NCBI RefSeq assembly: GCF_004010195.1
Contig: NC_057718.1
Location: forward strand, 65,618,919 to 65,682,918
Direction: 5' to 3'
Source: Chiloscyllium plagiosum
Lineage: Eukaryota
DNA length: 64,000 nucleotides
Positions 18,485-55,500 of this stretch are shown one piece after another (positions within the stretch are counted from its first letter, which is position 1; every line of letters begins with the position of its first letter). Both the position numbers and the translations under genes were made by a program. The notes beneath the pieces were generated by a model. The model was not told the DNA's origin and ran no database searches. It saw nothing but the letters and a program-made list of their open reading frames with translations.

Positions 18485-19119
18485 TTCAGAAACAGGGTCT
18501 TTCAAATTTTGTCCACATTCATCCTAAGTGCAATTTAGTTCTAGACAATTTAAAAAAAACTTAAACATGCCCAAAGTAGATCTAAGTATTATAGATGTTG
18601 GAATCCAAACTGAGCATCACCTGAGCATTTATGACTGAACTTTGCCTGGGTAATAGAGATTTGGCCTATAACAAAGTACAATGATGAATTTATTCTGAGT
18701 TTGATGCATAACTGAGCTGTGTTTGTGCAACTTACTGTATGTATACATTGTCATTAGGTTGATGAGAGTGAAAGTCGTGGGCTGCTGCAGCTCCAGGATT
18801 GCAATATTTTGAATAATATATTAGTATATTATGGTTTATATGGTTCATCTAAATCTCCATATTGCTGCAGCTAGTAGGACTTTCTCAGTATTTGCACAAG
18901 TTATTTATTTATCTCAGTTCATTCAGAAACAGGGTCTTTCAAATTTTGTCCACATTCATCCTAAGTGCAAGTTAGTTCTAGACAATTTAAAAAAAACTTA
19001 AACATGCCCAAAGTAGATCTAAATATTATGGTTTATTTGGTTCATCTAAATCTCCATATTGCTGCAGCTAGTAGGACTTTCTCAGTATTTGCACAAGTTA
19101 TTTATTTATCTCAGTTCAT
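18485..19119. repeat. Local tandem duplication A-X-B / A'-B'
   Basis: 18485-18592 recurs at 18922-19029; 18827-18922 recurs at 19024-19119. Confidence 0.9.
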
Positions 19120-19344
19120 CTATTATGCTTTGTCTCTTCTCCAGTAGGTATAGATGTCTATTTGAGAATTGTACCATTGAAATTTAAAGGCTCCGTGTGT
19201 TACTTGGTACACAGTATTAAATTCCAAATGTGAAGATAGGATTTCAGAATCACAACAGTGAGCTTTCTAAATGGGTAATTGTACTGGAATGATATTTCCC
19301 TGTTTTATTCTTTCTAATAAATAAATGTTTATCCTTTTTCCTAG

Positions 19345-19491
<147 letters not shown>

Positions 19492-19779
19492 TAGTTGTGT
19501 TTTCTTTCTTCTAATTTGCATTAATTGAAAACTTTGAAGCTCTCTTACAAGAGATGGCAAGCTAACAAGTCTTCAATTATGCAAATTCACGTTCTTTTTC
19601 CAAAAATAAATTATACTTCAGCAAACTTTTAATTAAACAGCCCTGATGGGACTGGAGGTGTGCTGGCTGATCAAGAGGTCCACATAATCAATGTAAAAAC
19701 ATGCACACTATGTAATAGAAGCCCAATGCACAGGGTATCGACATCACTGTTATACATTACTTAGTGTCAAGCTCTTAAG

Positions 19780-21737
19780 TTTTATTTAAGACAAACTTAT
19801 ATTATTTATCAGCAGAGAGCCTGCTCACTTGCATCGTCCACTGACTACTCTGACTTCATGGTGATCACAAAAACATGGTAAACGTCTGGTGTTTGAGGTA
19901 TATAACTTATCGAGAATGCCAGTTCATAAGGTGCTGGTTAAAATAAAGCTTGCTGTACATTGATTATTCAAATACTTTTGTGCATATCCACAGTCCGTGG
20001 AGTCCTGTATGTGTTTGGGTAATAGATGTTGTGTGATGGGTCCTGACAACCATTACCTTGAAAGATATGTCTGGTAGATTTGCTGCCACCATCCTCCTCT
20101 TGGGTTGGGATTAGTGTGTGACTGGTGTAGTATAGTACAGGAAAGCCACTTATAGTCTAATGAGCAGATTTTCTTGTCTTAAACAACATTGTAGTTTGTG
20201 TGATAAAAATTGTTTAGGTTATTGTTTCTGATACTACCAAACCAATGTCAGTGAGAGAGATTGAGGATGGTAGGTCTATCTTTGCGACTCAGAGCTGTTC
20301 TACTCTGATCCATATGATCAGATCATATTGGGTGGTGCTTAATGCGTTCCTCAGCAATAACCCTTTCAGAGCTTAATGCCTTATACAACAATAGACAGCA
20401 GTAAAGTCACTTTGGAAATCAGAGTGTGCATCATATACATCTATGAAGGTAAATTGATTAATTAAGCTGATATCTGAATCTATATGTGCTATACAACAAG
20501 ACAATTCATAGACTGTTCCCTGTTTGTCAACATTGTCTCAGCAATAAATGCATATTAACAACTATACTGGACATTGGTTATGATATTTGCTTTGCGGTTT
20601 TAGATTTTAGTTCTTCTGCAATTAGTTTGTTTACTGCCAGAAAACTGTTTTTCTAGCCTATCTAATAAATCTACTACTACTTTAGTCCAACATCCTTGTC
20701 TACTTATACATTCATCATTATTTACGGTTTATATTAGCCATCTGTTTTCTTTTCTCATTTCTTTCTTCAGCGTGTTTATGCCTTTCATGCTGACTAAGGC
20801 CTATCTTGGTGGAAAATTTAAGTGGACAGTACTTGCATTGAAAAGTCTCTTCTAAATTAACTGTATTATCCTTATTACATTTAGAATAGTGACACGCTAC
20901 CGCATAGTAGCTTCCTTCCCATCCACACTGACTGCAAGTGGCTCTTATTGATTTAACTCCTTTACAGCTTTTAACATGTTTTCTATACTGACCCATTGTA
21001 TTAAATATATTTTAAGCATTGATGGCAATTAAAGACATCTATGGGATACCGAAATACTAAATCAACATTTAATTTTATTTTGGCCATTGGGTACCATAAC
21101 ACAGGGATCTATTAAGTTATTACACTTCGTCTCACTTCCTTGCTCATCATTCAAATTCAAAGGACCCCCATAGTTGGAGTTATTAAAAAAAAAATTTAGA
21201 TTTAATAAACCTGGATTGTGGGGAAGGGACTGCTCCTCGTTACTTTCTGTTTGGTCGCTCACTTTCTCGTTGCAATTTAAATTTGGGAACTCTCACTTGC
21301 TACAAGGAGCAAACTAGGGGTCTCATCTGTTTGTGTATACACTGACGACGACGTCCTGTTGTGGTTAACACATTTGGCACACGCGTCGCCACTAACGTGC
21401 GTGCAAGGCGGTTGTTTACCCGGTTGTCCACCCAACCGGATACAGGAAAGATTGGCATGAGGGCCATTCCACCTCTTGCTTTGTTTTAAATCTCCTAGGG
21501 TAAGTGACCCACACAGGTCGACAGCCATCTCATATTCCTTCTGTCGTCGTACACGCCGACCCAACTTGAGTGCTGCTCTAGCAACGGTCAAATGATCCAT
21601 CAAATCGAGCACCCTTTGTCATTTTGTTACCAGGGAAACCAACACTACAAGTAAAAACGCGGTAGATGGACTATGCAAGCAAGCTGTTGGAAATCCAATG
21701 AAAACAGCTGTAGTCACATTTCCCCACTCCCCCAAAA
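19780..21737 (-). mobile_element. R2-like (A-clade) non-LTR retrotransposon remnant; RT not seen; 3' boundary uncertain
   Basis: Three zinc fingers plus Myb at 20581-21030; CpG-rich structured leader at 21270-21737; decayed CCHC/RLE-like motifs at 19870-20340. Confidence 0.65.
20581..21090 (-). pseudogene. R2 N-terminal DNA-binding region (ZF3-ZF2-ZF1-Myb), frameshifted
   Basis: CHQC..FNTMGQYRKHVKSC; CSQCGWEGSYYAVACHYSKC; FQCKYCPLKFSTKIGLSQHERHKHAEERNEKR; CWTKVVVDLLDRLEKQFSGSK/NKLIAEELKSKTAKQIS. Confidence 0.88.
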
Positions 21738-22160
21738 TACTTCTGAAATACTGCATTCAATTCTGTATTCCTGCTTTAGGGTGGATGTTGTGAAACTTGA
21801 AAGGGTTCAGAACAAGACTTACAAGAATGTTGACAGGGTCAGAGGGTTTGAGCTATAGAGAGAGGCTGAATAGGCTGGGACTATTTTACCTGGAGCATCA
21901 GAAGCTGAAGGGGTGACCTAATAAAGGTTTTTATAAAATCATGAGGAGCATGGATAGGGTGAATAGCCAACGTCTTTTCCCCAGAATGGGGGCGTCCAGA
22001 GTTAGAGGGTACAGGTTTAAGGTGAGATGGAAAAGATATAAAAGGGACCTAAGGGGCAACTTTTTCACACAGAGGGCAGTGTGTGTGTATGGAATGAGCT
22101 GCCAGAGGATGTAGTGGAGTCTGGTCTGATTACAGCATTTAAAAGGCATCTGGATGGGTA
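21738..22160 (+). mobile_element. CR1 LINE 3' fragment
   Basis: LLKYCIQF..VDVVKLERVQ..FFTQRAV motifs. Confidence 0.85.
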
Positions 22161-22162
22161 TT

Positions 22163-23782
22163 CTTCGGTTCAACCCGTCCGTGCCAACCACATAACCCAA
22201 CCCAATTTAGTCCCACCAGGAAAACCAACACTACAAGTAAAAACGCGGTAGATGTGACTACGCAAGCAAGCTGTTGGAAATCCAATGAAAACAGCTGTAG
22301 TCACATTTCCCCACTCCTCCAAAATACTTCTGAAATACTGCATTCAATTCTGTATTCCTGCTTTAGGCCCATATCCCGGCCCATATCCCTCCAAACCCTT
22401 TCTATTCTTATACCCATCCAAATGCCTCTTAAATGTCGCAATTGTACCAGTCTTCACCACTTTCTCAGGTAGCTCATTCCATACACGTACCACCCTCTGA
22501 GTGAAAAGGTTGCTCCTTAGGTCTCTTTTATATCTTTCCCCTCTCACCCTAAACCTATGCCCTCTAGTTCTGGACTCCCTGACCCCAGGGAAAAGACTTT
22601 GCCTGTTTACCCTATCCATGCCCCCTCATAATTTTGTTTAAAATTAGCCTCCGCTCCAGGGAAAACAGCCCCAGCCTGTTCAGCCTCTCCCTATAGCTCA
22701 AATCCTCCAACTCTGGCAACATCCTTGTAAATCTTTTCTGAACCCTTTCAAGTTTCACAACATCTTTCCGATAGGAAGGAGACCAGAATTGCACGCAATA
22801 TTCCAACNNNNNNNNNNNNNNNNNNNNNNNNNNNNNNNNNNNNNNNNTTCTTCACTATCCTATCTACCTGCGACTCCACTTTCAAGGAGCTGTGAACTTG
22901 CACTTCAAGGTCTCTTCAGGGTCTGTTCAGCAACACTCCCTAGGACCTTACCATTAAATATATAAGTCCTGTTCAGATTTGCTTTCCCAAAATGCAGCAC
23001 CTCTCATTTATCTGAACTAAACTCCATCTGCCACTTCTCAGCCCATTGGCCCATCTGGTTAAGATCCTGTTGTAATCTGAGGTACCTCTTCGCTGTCCAC
23101 TACACCTCCAATTTTGGTGTCATCTGCAAACTTACTAACTGTACCTCTTATGCTCGCATCCAAATCATTTATGTAAATCTCAAAAAGTAGAAGACCCAGC
23201 AGCGATCCTTGTGGCACTCCACTGGTCGCAGGCCTCCAGTCTGAAAAACAACCCTCCACCACCACCCTTTGAGCCAGTTCTGTATCCAAATGGCTAGTTC
23301 TCCTCCTTATATTCCATGAAATCTAACCTTGCTCATCAGTCTCCCATGGGGAACCTTGTCGAACGTCTTACTGAAGTCCATATAGATCACATCTACTGCT
23401 CTGCCCTCATCAATCCTCTTTGTTACTTCTTCAAAATACTCAATCAAGTTTGTGAGACATGGTTTCCCACGCACAAAGCCATGTTGACTATGCCTAATCA
23501 GTCCTTGCCTTTCCAAATACATGGTATTCCTGATGAAGGGCTTTTGCCCGAAACGTCAGTTCTCCTGCTCCTCGGATGCTGCCTGAACTGCTGTGCTTTT
23601 CCTGCACCACTCTAATCCAGAATCTGGTTTCCAGCATCTGCAGTCATTGTTTTTACCTCACTGGTCTATAGTTCCCTGGATTGTCCTTACCGCCCTTCTT
23701 CAGCAGTGGCACCACGTTTGCCAACCTCCAGTCTTCTGACACCTCACCTGTAACTATCGATGATATAAATATCTCAGCAAGT
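22163..23782 (-). mobile_element. CR1 LINE ORF2 (RT and 3' end); N gap 22808-22847; interrupted at 22215-22367 and 23526-23657
   Basis: ORFs with [52 protein letters not shown]. Confidence 0.92.
23526..23657 (+). mobile_element. Penelope pseudo-LTR fragment with minimal hammerhead motif at 23530-23557
   Basis: CTGATGA-A-GGGC-TTTT-GCCC-GAAAC-GTC; replaces about 55 bp of CR1 that is present in the copy at 32045-32100. Confidence 0.75.
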
Positions 23783-29057: not shown

Positions 29058-30035
29058 CCTAATGAAGGGTCCTGTCCGAAATGTCGGCTCTCCTCCTCCT
29101 CGGATGCTGCCTGACCTGCTGTGCTTTTTCCAGCTGGAAATGTGTTGCTGGAAAAACGCAGCAGGTCAGGCAGCATCCAGGGAACAGGAGAATCGACGTT
29201 TCGGGCATAAGCCCTTCTTCAGGAATGAGGAAAGTTGGTCCAGCAGGCTAAGATAAAAAGTAGGGAGGAGGGACTTGGGGGAGGGGCGTCGGAAATGTGA
29301 TAGGTGGAAAGAGGTCAAGGTGAGGGNNNNNNNNNNNNNNNNNNNNNNNNNNNNNNNNNNNNNNNNNNNNNNNNNNNNNNNNNNNNNNNNNNNNNNNNNN
29401 NNNNNNNNNNNNNNNNNNNNNNNNNNNNNNNNNNNNGGTTGGTTGGTCCGGGTGTCCTAGAGGTGTTCTCTGAAACGCTCCGCAAGTAGGCGGTCTGTCT
29501 CCCCAATATAGAGGAGGCCACATCGGGTGCAGAGGATGCAATAGATGATTGTGTGGAGGTGCAGGTGAATCTGTGGCGGATATGGGAGTTTCCTTTGGGG
29601 CCTTGGAGGGAGGTGAGAGGGGAGGTGTGGGCGGAAGTCTTGCACCTCCTGCGGTTGCAGGGGAAGGTGCGGGGAGTGGAGGTTGGGTTGGTGGGGGGTG
29701 TGGATCTGACGAGGGGGTCACGGAGGGAGTGGTCTTTACGGAATGCTGATAGGGGAGGGGAGGGAAATATATCCTTGGTGGTGGGGTCCGTTTGGAGGTG
29801 GCGGAAATGACGGCGGATGATACGTTGTACATGGAGATTGGTGGGGTGGTAGGTGAGGACCAGTGGGGTTCTGTCCTGGTGGCGGTTGGAGGGGCGGGGC
29901 TCAAGGGCGGAGGAGCGGGAAGTGGAAGAGATGCGGTGGAGGGCATCGTCGACCACGTCGGGGGGGAAATTGCGGTTTTTCCAGCGCCACACTTTATTGA
30001 CTTTGGCTCTCCGGCATCTGCAGTCCTCACTATCC
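29058..30035 (-). mobile_element. Penelope-like element (RT C-terminus, GIY-YIG, pseudo-LTR pieces); N gap 29327-29436
   Basis: RTPLVLTYHP, IIYCILCTRCGLLYIGETDRLLAERFREHL; intact hammerhead core on minus strand at 29195-29222; GC/CpG-rich, so probably young. Confidence 0.88.
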
Positions 30036-31044
30036 CCATCCCTGTAGTTCTGTAAGTTAATTTCTGCTCGAGTGTCCACCAATTTCCTTTCTAAATAATT
30101 TTATCATTTTTGCTGTTGCTGGCCTCCTGGGCAGTTCCTTGTTTTTGTACTCTCTCTGCCTCTGCTTATACATCCCATGTTCCTTGCCCACCATTGTAAC
30201 TGTGTCCTACCATCTTTATGCACACATGAGCCCCTCAGGTCTGTCTCTCCCTATGTACTGTTTAGAATAGTGCCATTTAAATGTCTTGCCTCTCCCTACA
30301 CACTTGTCAAAATACATGCCTGTCTATGTCCTGTTGCAAGTGATTCTTATCCTTCAAGTCTCAAAACTTACAGAATTTCACTTTGGGATCCTAGCAGCAG
30401 AGAATAGTGTCAATTCCCCTGGCTATACTACTTTCAATTACAACTACATTTCTCTCTTCTCCTCTCTCTTGAATGGCTCCCTGTACCAATATTTCAATAT
30501 TGAATCACTTTAGCATTAACCCAGCACTGAATCTTAAGAACAAATGTACTGACGTACAAGTTAGGAAAATCTTTAGAGATGCTGACATAAAATCCACATT
30601 GGAAGAACTAAATCCAATTTCACAGAAGTTGGATTCTATTCCAAGCTCAATGCTAAACATGAATGTTGGTCATTCTGTCACTGTGCTGTTGGAACAGACT
30701 CTGATGGATAAACTGATGGATATCATTGAAGCAATGATATTCAAATGATATTTTGAAAACAATGATTTCTTGAGTTTCTTTTGTGAAGTTAACCAACCAA
30801 GACTCATGTTTTAGCATGAAGCATCGGGATTGATGGAATTGAGGTACTTTTACTGATCTTTCCTGAAAATCTAAACTTACTCTATACGTGAGGGACACAG
30901 CAAGTAAGGGGTAGTGGTATGTATAAAATGTCTAATCAAGAGGAGAGAAAAAATGTGCAAGTAAAATTGCAGCAAACATTAAAACTTGTATAAATACGCT
31001 AAGAGAAAAAGATTCGTAAAGACAAATGCAGATATCTTGAAGTC

Positions 31045-38962: not shown

Positions 38963-39073
<111 letters not shown>

Positions 39074-52386: not shown

Positions 52387-52592
52387 AAATAACCAGGGTG
52401 ACCTGGATTATGAAGAGGTCAGCAAGCATGGACCAGTCAGGCCTGTACCAAAGGGTTCTGAGTCACCCAATTCTTTCCTTGATCAAGAATATCAGAGGCG
52501 GCGGTTTACCATTGCAGAATATGATCAATTGCCCCCATATGCATTTGAAGTGCCTAAACCCACCAGGATGCGGGATAAGACACAGCAATATG
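52387..52592 (+). CDS. CNKSR3: CNKSR3 exon (206 nt): NNQGDLDYEEVSKHGPVRPVPKGSESPNSFLDQEYQRRRFTIAEYDQLPPYAFEVPKPTRMRDKTQQY(G)
   Basis: cattcag|A AAT...TAT G|gtttgt; conserved KGSESPNSFLDQE..RRRFTI; phase 2 in, phase 1 out. Confidence 0.94.
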
Positions 52593-55500
52593 GTTTGTTA
52601 TTTTTCATGTCTTCTGAAATTGTGATTGATTTTTGCTTAACTCTCCAAATCTCCTTGCAACCAGTAATTCCAAAATTCCTGGCTCATTGGACAGTTTATC
52701 CATGTTTTCAACAGTGTTACTGAAGGTTGAGGTCATTTGCATAGGATGTCTTTAATGTTCCTCAACATAGGATTCAGATAATATCTTTAAATCATCAGCA
52801 AATTTTAAAAGCTGGTTTTCTCTGAGGGTGTGGCAACAGAAGTTTGGCAGTATTGCAGCTTATAGTATTTTTGAATTTCCCTTAAGGCCATTCCTCTGCA
52901 AAGTCTAATGTGGAAAATATTTAGAAATATTTTTAAATGGATATGTAGGAGCACAGAGGGTAACATTAAAGAGTTTGACATTTAGTTGAAAGAATATTAC
53001 CAGTGGAGTTTTACAGGGACCTGTTTTGGGACTTGTGTTTAAAATCTTCATTAGTAGAAGTGATCTGGAGCTAGGAGTAACAAGTGCAGTGACTGAATTT
53101 GTAGATGACACAAAGTGAAAGGAGATGGAAGACTCTAAACCTGAACAAAATGGAAAATATGAATGTTCCCTGAAATTTGACATGTAGCAAATGAAATTCA
53201 CTTTCGAGAACTGGAAAGGTTCACATGCGGACAAAAAAATTCCAAAAAGCACTTAACTCATTGGCAGGAAAATGTGTGCACAAAAAAAATTCTGTAGTTC
53301 TGATTGCTGAAAAATTGAAGCAAATGCAACGGTGTTGGTGGTAGTGAATGAAAACAATATTGGAATTTATTGGAAATTCAAACTACTGAAAGAATCCCGT
53401 TACTTTTTAAATCATTGTTACAATTGCATTTTTGAGTATAGCAACCCATAATTGTCACCTGTCAGTCCTTTCATAAGTGAAGTGTCAGATCTCCGTGGAA
53501 GTCCATGGAATGGGCCATTTATTGTCATTGTGCTTGGGCAAACCTCAGCAGCTGTGCCACCTCTGGCCTTTCTGTAGGCACATTGCATGTTGCAGACTTA
53601 GTGTAGGTGGTCTTTAAAATGTGCGGAACTAAATTTCTGTGCTTGCAACCACCAATTTACTGTAAATGCTCTTCCAAGGAAATTTGGAAGGACTTTTTAA
53701 AAATGTCATTTAATACTATAAATCTTGTTAGTCCGGGAACAATTCCCCACAGAAGATCTACCTGACAATTCTACAACTGCTCTCATTTCTGCTTTACACA
53801 AAAGATACTGCAACAATTGAAAGGAAAAACAAGAAAGAAACCAGAATGAGTGAAGGGTTAGATTGAGCAATTGTGTAAACTTGAGGGAGAAAAGTTATCA
53901 TATCTTGACCTTTCCAATTTCCCTATCACAAATACATCTGTCCATGACAGATTGTAGGCAAGAATGACCACTTCTTTGTGCTCGTGGAGATGAAATCCCA
54001 TCTTCACATTGAGCATGCTCTCCATCATGTTGTATGGCACAACCACCGTGCTAAGTGGGGTAGATTCAGAACAAATCCAATAAGTCATTGTGGCACCCAA
54101 GAGACACTATAGGCCATTAGCAATGGCAGAATTGTGTTAAACCCTCAATCTGCAATCTCTTGACCTAGCATATCCCTCACTCTGCCATTATGGTTGCTCA
54201 ATGAAGAGTACCGGAAGGCATGGGCAGTAATAATATCAGGCATACTTAAAAATGTGATGTTAACTTGGTGAAGCAATGGCATCAGGAATATTTGGATTTC
54301 AGACAATGATAGCAGTATTGGATAGATATAGTAACCCATAACTAATCATTAAGCTCTAGTCCTAACCCTTCCAGTAGGAACATTTAATTGCCAATCAACA
54401 TATAGGATGAGGGTCTACATCTATTGCCATCCTCATTGGTGGGGGAGCCTCTCATATCTATGCGAAAGATGGGTCTGTCTTCAGCCAGAAGTGACCAGTT
54501 GCTGATCCATCTCACCTGAAGCCCCCAAATGTCTCAGCTGTCTGTCTTCAGCCAATTTGATTCACTCTATGATTTTAAAAAAGATGGCTGAAGCCTCTAG
54601 ATACTTCGAAGGATGTGTGTCAGAAAAGCAATTCCAGCAATCATGGTGGTTACTGGTCGTTGAAGCCTTGTGCTCCAGAACTAGCCATGCGCCTAGCCAA
54701 GCTGTTCAGGGCAGTTCCTATATTAGCATTAATTGGTAGATTGGTTTGGCATAGCTAGTTTGCAGCTCCATTATAATTTGTATTATACAACAACCAAGGT
54801 GATTTGAATGCAAGCCCCTATGTTTGGTCTTTTTTCCTCTTTCCGTTCCTATGTTTCTGTTTTCATTGTTATCTAATACCTTGATAAATTAGATGTGATT
54901 ATCAATTTGTATATTTTAAATTTTTTTTAGAAGTCCCATGACACCAAGTCAAAGTTCGACAAGATAATTATCTTGCCATTATCTCTCTGCCTATAAATTC
55001 TGTGCCTGTGTGCTTACCTCCACTCCCACCTGATGAAAAGGCAGCGCTCTAAACGCTTGTGATTTTAAATAAACCTGTCTGACTATAAACCTGGTGAGGT
55101 GTGACTTCTGACTTTGCCCACCCCAGTCCAACAGTGGCATCTCCATACCTTAGAAATTTGTATTAATATTTGGGGGTGGGGAGAGAGGTGACATGGTAAT
55201 TGATCAATTTTTAAATCGGTGACAATCAGCTTTTCAAAGGTTCAAAAATTAATAAGTTCAATGCATTTTGTTGAAGCATTTCATCTTTTATTCATCAGGA
55301 TGTTTTTGTAAGAAAATCAATTCAAGTGGCAAGCCAGAATTTGTAGTGCATGAAAGGAGATTGCTGATTAATTGGCAAGTGTACTTTAAATGGTCACAAT
55401 ATAGTCATGAAGAATGCATCTGTTAATGCTGATTGATAGTTAACTGCCCAGCCTTATTAAATTTTAAACCAGACTGATTGACTTTGGTTAGGGCATTGCA

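Follow-up and report, generated by a model that had tools for sequence, protein, structure and literature searches.

A stretch of 64,000 nt of Chiloscyllium plagiosum (the window; GCF_004010195.1, NC_057718.1:65,618,919-65,682,918, forward strand, with all positions below in window coordinates) contains a piece of an R2 retrotransposon far from any 28S rRNA gene. [quoted passage not shown] The state of the family to which it belongs lies in between the expected extremes: it is 28S-targeted yet leaky.

The window copy is the decayed 5′ 1.15 kb of an element, comprising the ribozyme start, the UTR and an N-terminal ZF3-ZF2-ZF1-Myb module (Table 1). Six-frame translation places all four motifs of this module on the minus strand, and tblastn with an intact family member as the query resolves four frame segments (21066-21016, 21011-20721, 20704-20621 and 20634-20581) separated by three frameshifts, with three stop codons past 20721. 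The initial annotation, which had proposed this module across about three frameshifts and an A-clade R2 origin for it, was thus right on both counts: the copy displays the lineage-A layout of three N-terminal zinc fingers (CCHH, CCHC and CCHH) followed by a Myb domain, and its open piece P0001 matches the R2 structures 9nl3, 9dou and 9nl2 at E-values of 4e-11, 5e-11 and 5e-7, respectively. By comparison, the best host C2H2 protein reaches 0.007, and 30 of the 33 matches listed are single zinc fingers at 0.007 or worse. As the R2 matches lie far above those to host C2H2 proteins, and there is no intact tandem C2H2 ORF, we rejected a host C2H2 zinc-finger gene as the identity of the piece. Homology to sister copies spans the element from its 5′ end to 20581. 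Hence, of the extent first given as 20581-21262, the 20581 end stands, while on the other side the element, with its 5′ end, reaches about 21737. The G-run and TGACTAC motif lie at about 21733-21710; the P3/L3 core of the ribozyme, present in sister copies, appears by eye to be deleted. A deletion next to P1 leaves its register too unsure for us to claim compensatory changes there. No R2 reverse transcriptase (RT) or endonuclease part was found within the 64-kb window, and nothing points to a function for this dead fossil. At the Rfam gathering level, the 64 kb yield no rRNA, in line with the earlier remark that no 28S target flanks the copy, which is not at the canonical 28S site.

Table 1. 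Features of the window bearing on the R2 insertion, and contigs of other organisms aligned to it
Feature	Position	Strand	Remarks
CNKSR3 coding exon upstream of the R2-holding intron	19345..19404	+	100% to P0122 residues 223-242
Next CNKSR3 coding exon, closing the R2-holding intron	38993..39073	+	shark homologue
Stub (30 nt) of the interrupted CR1, flanking the R2 piece on its 3′ side	20551..20580	+	
Dead lineage-A R2 insert, 5′-complete and 3′-truncated	20581..21737	-	includes a few probably untemplated bases at the 5′ junction
Myb domain, split over two frames	20581..20704	-	ends after KTAKQIS
P0001, open 97-aa piece: ZF3 end, ZF2 (CCHC, 11-residue spacer), ZF1 (CCHH)	20721..21011	-	
ZF3 first half (CxxC)	21016..21066	-	translation and tblastn
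R2 5′ end: G-run, TGACTAC hairpin, P1′ strand of HDV-like ribozyme	21615..21733	-	
Remainder of that old CR1 copy, flanking the R2 piece on its 5′ side	21738..22161	+	
152-bp duplicate of 21629-21780 (R2/CR1 5′ junction)	22215..22367	-	97.4%; in 3′ end of a second CR1
Contig X12 alignment	19229-21799		130 differences, 52 gaps
Contig X11 alignment	19130-21637		119 differences, 49 gaps

The R2 piece lies antisense to CNKSR3, a gene identified from its exon at 52391-52594; a shark homologue gives nine plus-strand exon matches between 8873 and 61487, and the intron of a protein-coding gene recognized in the initial annotation is that between the two exons in Table 1. The annotation also had a CR1 at the 5′ flank. 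It is there, but not merely as a 5′ neighbor: the R2 piece interrupts a single old plus-strand CR1 copy, leaving the 30-nt stub on its 3′ side, with only 3 CR1 nt missing. The last 19 nt of the stub match an intact CR1 copy in locus L180 at 18 positions, and 4 of the 19 homologues of the right flank examined have a left-flank score of 30 or more. In the R2 sense, the 3′ flank begins TAACCAA, a 6/7 match to the 28S TAGCCAA, and the reconstructed empty site reads ...CAGAAG TAGCC TAACCAATG as against ...TTAAGG TAGCC AAATG in 28S. This site matches only the downstream half of the 28S target, a point against the favored reading. Since the R2 sequence stops at the target junction, the 3′ 3.4 kb would have been lost either at insertion or through a deletion ending within 5 nt of the old junction.

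In four comparisons, single contigs from two other organisms (X11 and X12) were found to contain the same R2 piece in the same place, indicating that the insertion is old and fixed and predates their split. A further run, X5 from organism B, covers 7 of 30 bins. A joint between 20580 and 21748 in X12 was considered as an empty allele and rejected: only some 20 nt make up its left side, and CR1 sequence fills the 15 letters in between, which favors an intact CR1 copy from another place. Among the contigs of other organisms compared, none showed a true empty allele. The R2/CR1 5′ junction itself has a 152-bp duplicate about 430 bp from its source, hosted by a second, minus-strand CR1 and having the look of a templated insertion; a contig of X3 stops at 21780, as would be expected of a real branch at this duplicate. 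Elsewhere in the window, two direct repeats that interleave and are nearly perfect (98% over 108 bp and 99% over 97 bp) occupy 18485-19119, just before the CNKSR3 exon, and represent either a recent local duplication or an assembly artefact, while ORF pieces with flanking inverted repeats at 29248-30100 belong to a common repeat of this genome that we take to be a Penelope-like element of the GIY-YIG type.

The genome-wide search for other copies, a check suggested in the initial annotation, returned 45 matches at the DNA level (best 40 of 45 candidates scored) and at least 163 with the zinc-finger protein (best 150 of 236 candidates scored), the latter figure being a lower bound that includes split hits and a second R2 family. 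Twenty 9-kb stretches hold elements of about 4.4-4.7 kb with ORFs of up to 1,196 aa. The ORF of L062 scores 533-595 bits (E 2e-177 to 9e-159) against R2Tg and R2Pm, as compared to about 210 for the B. mori type and about 104 for L1. Inspection by eye of L061, L062 and L064 finds the AFADD, CxxC..HxxxxC (zinc knuckle) and PD..D (endonuclease) motifs in a single ORF. Thus, as in R2Tg (9dou, 9nl3) and R2Pm/PlaMe (9nl2), the ZF3-ZF2(CCHC)-ZF1-Myb module, RT, zinc knuckle and RLE reside in one ORF. For L062, the structure model of the N-terminal module (mean pLDDT 85, and 91-95 over residues 1-60, the part bearing on whether ZnF3:2 co-folds) has the three R2 structures (R2Tg, R2Pm) as its top matches and a Myb that folds over residues 140-191; its whole-module superposition gives an rmsd of 8.5-25, for which the linkers are responsible.

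A quick IQ-TREE analysis of the RT (SH-aLRT, midpoint root), covering 19 of the 20 genome loci (L071 was dropped for coverage) and 45 of the 120 listed homologues, unites the 19 C. plagiosum copies and a Chiloscyllium punctatum protein, which nests among them, in one starred clade. This bamboo-shark clade is sister to catshark proteins, then to a Chrysemys protein, and adjoins the R2 clade of birds, turtles and teleosts; hence, by RT sequence the family groups with the lineage-A R2s, in a tree that has no deliberately chosen lineage-D or NeSL outgroup and to which the window copy, having no RT, contributes nothing. Its own placement comes from a tree of 5′ DNA, ignoring the long-branch join of an internally deleted copy (C32), in which it falls in an old starred clade of four; one member of this clade, on C2, has at least 849 nt of upstream 28S at 87.8% identity. 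Within the tree the window copy has no close sister, its highest identity being 62% over 1,089 columns. The C32 copy (L174:5163-6097) is a 935-bp element joining the 5′ 369 nt to the 3′ 570 nt at a near-cognate site, and is 95% identical to a 28S-sited copy; in this it is like the short R2 elements with internal deletions that insects have.

The junctions of these copies reveal both canonical and dispersed insertions. Rfam finds LSU rRNA in three of the 16 long loci (L064, L072 and L074), of which L064 and L074 have a junction with it at either end at the canonical site, a site that the shark family has in common with lineage-A vertebrate R2s. In L072 (1-1300 and 6079-6400, oriented), R2 sits within a rearranged 28S: one target site holds a short remnant of the R2 3′ end, and downstream of the long copy lies a duplicated 28S target that has no insert. 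Over all loci, we counted 58 distinct 5′ junctions (12 with 28S, 10 with a tandem R2 and 36 with other DNA) and 76 3′ calls (22 with 28S, 11 with a tandem R2, 41 with other DNA and 2 without a junction), figures that are not on- and off-target rates because they stem from the best-scoring 40 or 150 candidates only and rDNA arrays are probably collapsed. The window copy enters this census via its duplicated 5′ end. On chromosome-scale contigs, 28 of the 33 5′ junctions are non-28S (5 are 28S) and 29 of the 40 3′ junctions are neither 28S nor tandem. Moreover, 28S-flanked and dispersed copies are interleaved in both the RT and the 5′ DNA trees, where the labels of L063, L065, L079 and L080 derive from one or two junctions or a motif search rather than Rfam. 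Among 14 strays examined with both junctions outside 28S, 13 are 4.4-4.7 kb long, and the 14 show neither target duplications of at least 4 nt nor flanking poly(A). Seven 5′-truncated chromosomal copies lack upstream 28S but are followed by downstream 28S of 55, 76, 217, 533, 539, 840 and ≥1,100 nt; they may have been copied from read-through RNA or may be DNA debris. On small contigs, head-to-tail tandem R2s (L092, L099, L105, L140, L212, L215, L226, L235, L242, L245 and L246), several of which have their units separated by a short duplicated 5′ stub, may reflect template jumps or amplified arrays.

These observations support neither of the two alternatives offered at the outset, a rare ectopic insertion or a shark lineage with lost or changed target specificity. 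The former does not square with at least 163 matches and 36 of 58 5′ junctions that are neither 28S nor R2, and the latter conflicts with the canonical 28S copies, the interleaved trees and the old-clade member with at least 849 nt of 28S upstream. Nor do all other copies lie in 28S, the situation in which the annotation had held that only the accident would survive: besides those 5′ junctions, 41 of the 76 3′ junction calls involve neither 28S nor a tandem R2. The same body of evidence led us to reject three other assignments. R2NS is inconsistent with the 28S-sited copies and 28S-like flanks; an R8/R9-like shift to one new fixed rDNA target is inconsistent with non-28S flanks that are mostly unique, the largest shared site being that of four copies in a Tx1-like repeat; and Utopia/NeSL is inconsistent with the presence of the Myb and with Rfam in the 16 long loci finding LSU rRNA only (3/16) and no U2 or other snRNA target.

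The strays start precisely. Of the 32 that are full-length, 29 begin at the element's own G-run and none has a 28S leader of 10 nt or more. A pattern search recovers P1, the P3/L3 motif and GGTAAC in 26 of the 58 5′ ends; in 23 of these 26, the P1′ strand pairs 7/7 with GGGGGGA, and in 25 it places a C across from the C of the 28S -28 site. This pairing and the C opposite C point to a predicted self-cleavage at the element's own 5′ end, as in the Drosophila R2 and in contrast to the zebra finch R2, which the excerpted text of PMC3774820 places with the -28 site. At the gathering level, Rfam reports no HDV-like ribozyme in the window or in the 16 long loci scanned. A second R2 family (L255-L266), about 40% identical in the zinc fingers, is also dispersed; here, P1′ has a G opposite the 28S C in 8 of 9 cases, and 11 of 12 loci retain the -28 leader in part or in full, preceded by non-28S DNA. 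The 5′ end of this family resembles by eye the published R2-1_STig row. In L267 (C79094), the 3′ part of the first family is followed directly by a 921-aa ORF of the second, making a tandem of two R2 families. The idea that the leak stems from losing the 28-nt rRNA leader was considered and rejected, such a loss being neither sufficient nor necessary given that the leader-keeping second family is dispersed too; as both ribozyme types leak, the cleavage site does not explain the leak.

The off-target flanks are weakly 28S-like close to the junctions. Across 32 unique upstream flanks (4 duplicates removed, three Tx1 flanks still being homologous to each other), 9.31 of 20 bases match 28S, as compared to 8.31 in random window DNA (z 4.3; 0 of 20,000 resamples) and 8.30 in a shuffled control (0 of 5,000 shuffles reach the observed value)—a weak upstream signal that exceeds the background by one base in 20. 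Most of the excess falls at -3 to -9 in a descriptive best-offset alignment, and CTT occurs within the last 10 nt in 14 of the 32 flanks against 15% expected. On the other side, 35 unique 3′ flanks (6 duplicates removed; L184, judged by eye, has neither motif) include 19 with TAG at offset 0-2 and 14 with TAGC, for which chance gives 4.0% and 0.8%, respectively; 16 of the 35 lack even TAG. Part of the TAG(C) at 3′ junctions could have been copied from the rRNA tail. A target origin of the junction bases was checked for repeat flanks only. Four copies (C20, C43, C5 and C27), which represent at least two subfamilies, have a common site in a high-copy repeat, presumably a Tx1/L1-like ORF end from its translation, and 24 R2-free copies of that repeat give the empty site as TGAGATCCTTCATG|TACGCC versus TGACTCTCTTAAGG|TAGCC in 28S. 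As these R2-free copies carry the 28S-like bases, the junction bases there come from the target. Another copy, 95% identical to the 28S-sited L064, sits between GACAAACCTTATAG and TAGCCAGAG.

R2 elements are co-transcribed with 28S, released by their ribozyme and inserted by nicking and TPRT, and copies in rDNA are purged. On this background, we propose that master copies in the rDNA would be co-transcribed with 28S, that the predicted HDV-like ribozyme would cut the transcript at the G-run, and that the R2 protein would occasionally nick a near-cognate site with a core of roughly CTT.A.G|TAGC and prime cDNA synthesis there. Such strays would evade the turnover that clears rDNA copies, with successive subfamilies accumulating as fossils; with strays persisting while rDNA copies turn over, the mid-aged part of the tree would be visible only outside rDNA. 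The window copy calls for one additional step. Its missing 3′ 3.4 kb ends at the target junction, suggesting that its cDNA likely came from a 3′-shortened RNA or a template jump, with a later deletion as the alternative. A 3′-truncated, 5′-complete insert differs from the plain output of TPRT, and this counts against the TPRT reading for the window copy.

This is where the strongest competing explanation gains what traction it has, namely that R2 RNA or cDNA was inserted by other machinery, be it the CR1 or Tx1/L1 RT acting in trans or DNA-break capture, at sites not chosen by R2. It is most plausible for the window copy itself, which lacks the 3′ UTR required to start TPRT and lies 30 nt from a CR1 end; several strays also lie within CR1 or Tx1-like repeats, and about half of the 3′ flanks have no TAG. 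For the family as a whole, the absence of target duplications and poly(A) from all 14 two-ended strays, the 28S-like bases at both junctions and the four independent insertions at one 28S-like register of a repeat speak against it, and we regard it as unlikely overall. Less probable still is that a sub-lineage lost its 28S specificity and spread alone in the manner of R2NS. A mid-aged part of the 5′ tree does include 14 copies in a row without a 28S-flanked 5′ junction, and 28S follows only 1 of the 30 loci found with the 3′ end of this subfamily. Yet the subfamily includes the 5′-truncated L175 with its 76-nt 28S tail, its flanks retain the 28S-like bias, 28S-sited copies occur in both older and younger clades, and no R2 promoter besides 28S co-transcription is known (PMC2718515). 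We give little credence to the idea that recombination or circular DNA moved R2-bearing rDNA units and that the strays are their debris at the DNA level. Chromosomal copies that have 28S downstream (55 to >1,000 nt) or upstream (97 to >849 nt) are compatible with it, although such copies may equally be DNA pieces or copies of unprocessed co-transcripts, and it fails to account for full-length strays that run from the G-run to the R2 3′ end and are free of 28S on either side, or for a window copy whose 5′ junction has not a single 28S base. A lone ectopic accident, for which the lack of a close sister might be cited, or a host zinc-finger gene is scarcely credible in light of the at least 163 protein matches, the dozens of non-28S junctions and the dominance of R2 over host C2H2 matches.

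If near-cognate TPRT by the R2 protein is the main route, the leak might lie in the protein itself. We tentatively raise the possibility, which we hold to be somewhat less probable than its negation, that shark lineage-A R2s are intrinsically relaxed, intermediate between 28S-specific R2 and R2NS, possibly via a shorter ZF2, and that their >100 natural off-target sites map the dispensable bases. Relative to R2Tg and R2Pm, the shark family has dozens of non-28S copies, and its ZF2 spacer is 11 residues long (P0001, P0002, P0004, P0022, P0023 and P0076) as against 12 in most of the other A-lineage proteins listed. ZF2 makes base contacts near the nick in R2Tg and R2Pm according to the excerpts of PMC11601368; however, the excerpts of PMC11204384 describe ZF3-2 as dispensable for site choice in avian R2, which speaks against the ZF2-spacer lead. 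Long host contigs of R2 proteins from other species were not used as a sign of an off-rDNA location, as 11- and 12-residue ZF2 versions both occur on them. Three R2 ORFs from turtle and birds (P0004, P0012 and P0044) are named in public sources as host genes (PDE3B, enolase superfamily member) and are likely R2 copies on long contigs that were merged into gene models.

R1 and R2 of B. mori were reportedly found outside 28S in a paper of 1988. In Drosophila, the excerpted text of Stage and Eickbush 2009 (PMC2718515) describes 118 non-28S R1 insertions that share 4-9 bp with the 28S site and in some cases carry copied 28S tails, and R2 as 'seldom' outside its locus and often incomplete. These R1 strays are the closest mechanistic precedent, with the difference that R1 is an APE element, unlike the shark R2. 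R2NS-1_SMed and R2NS-1_CSi, D- and C-clade families from just two flatworms and called non-specific in the portions of Kojima et al. 2016 (PMC5035012) at hand, resemble the shark family in having copies outside rDNA, but the latter retains 28S copies and a 28S-like bias. The family itself is already published as a 28S R2: R2-1_CPl and R2-1_CPu (Table S2 of Hassan et al. 2026, PMC13188248) belong to it by their 5′ end, P1′ strand and zinc-finger module, in a comparison covering 8 of the 13 cartilaginous-fish rows (165-172) of the supplement. The accessible part of that study defines R2 by 28S insertion, gives one 28S-flanked element per bamboo-shark species and contains no mention of the dispersed shark copies. 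We found no description of dispersed shark R2 in the literature searched, a scope to which subscription journals, Repbase and Dfam are external; the genome-wide pattern is that of a leaky 28S R2 family whose near-cognate strays span many age layers.

This genome offers a worked case of a vertebrate A-lineage family in which canonical and near-cognate insertions occur together in several age layers. A-lineage R2 proteins are in use for gene insertion into human rDNA, and the natural off-target sites of a relative provide a testable list of tolerated mismatches for such A-lineage R2 gene insertion.
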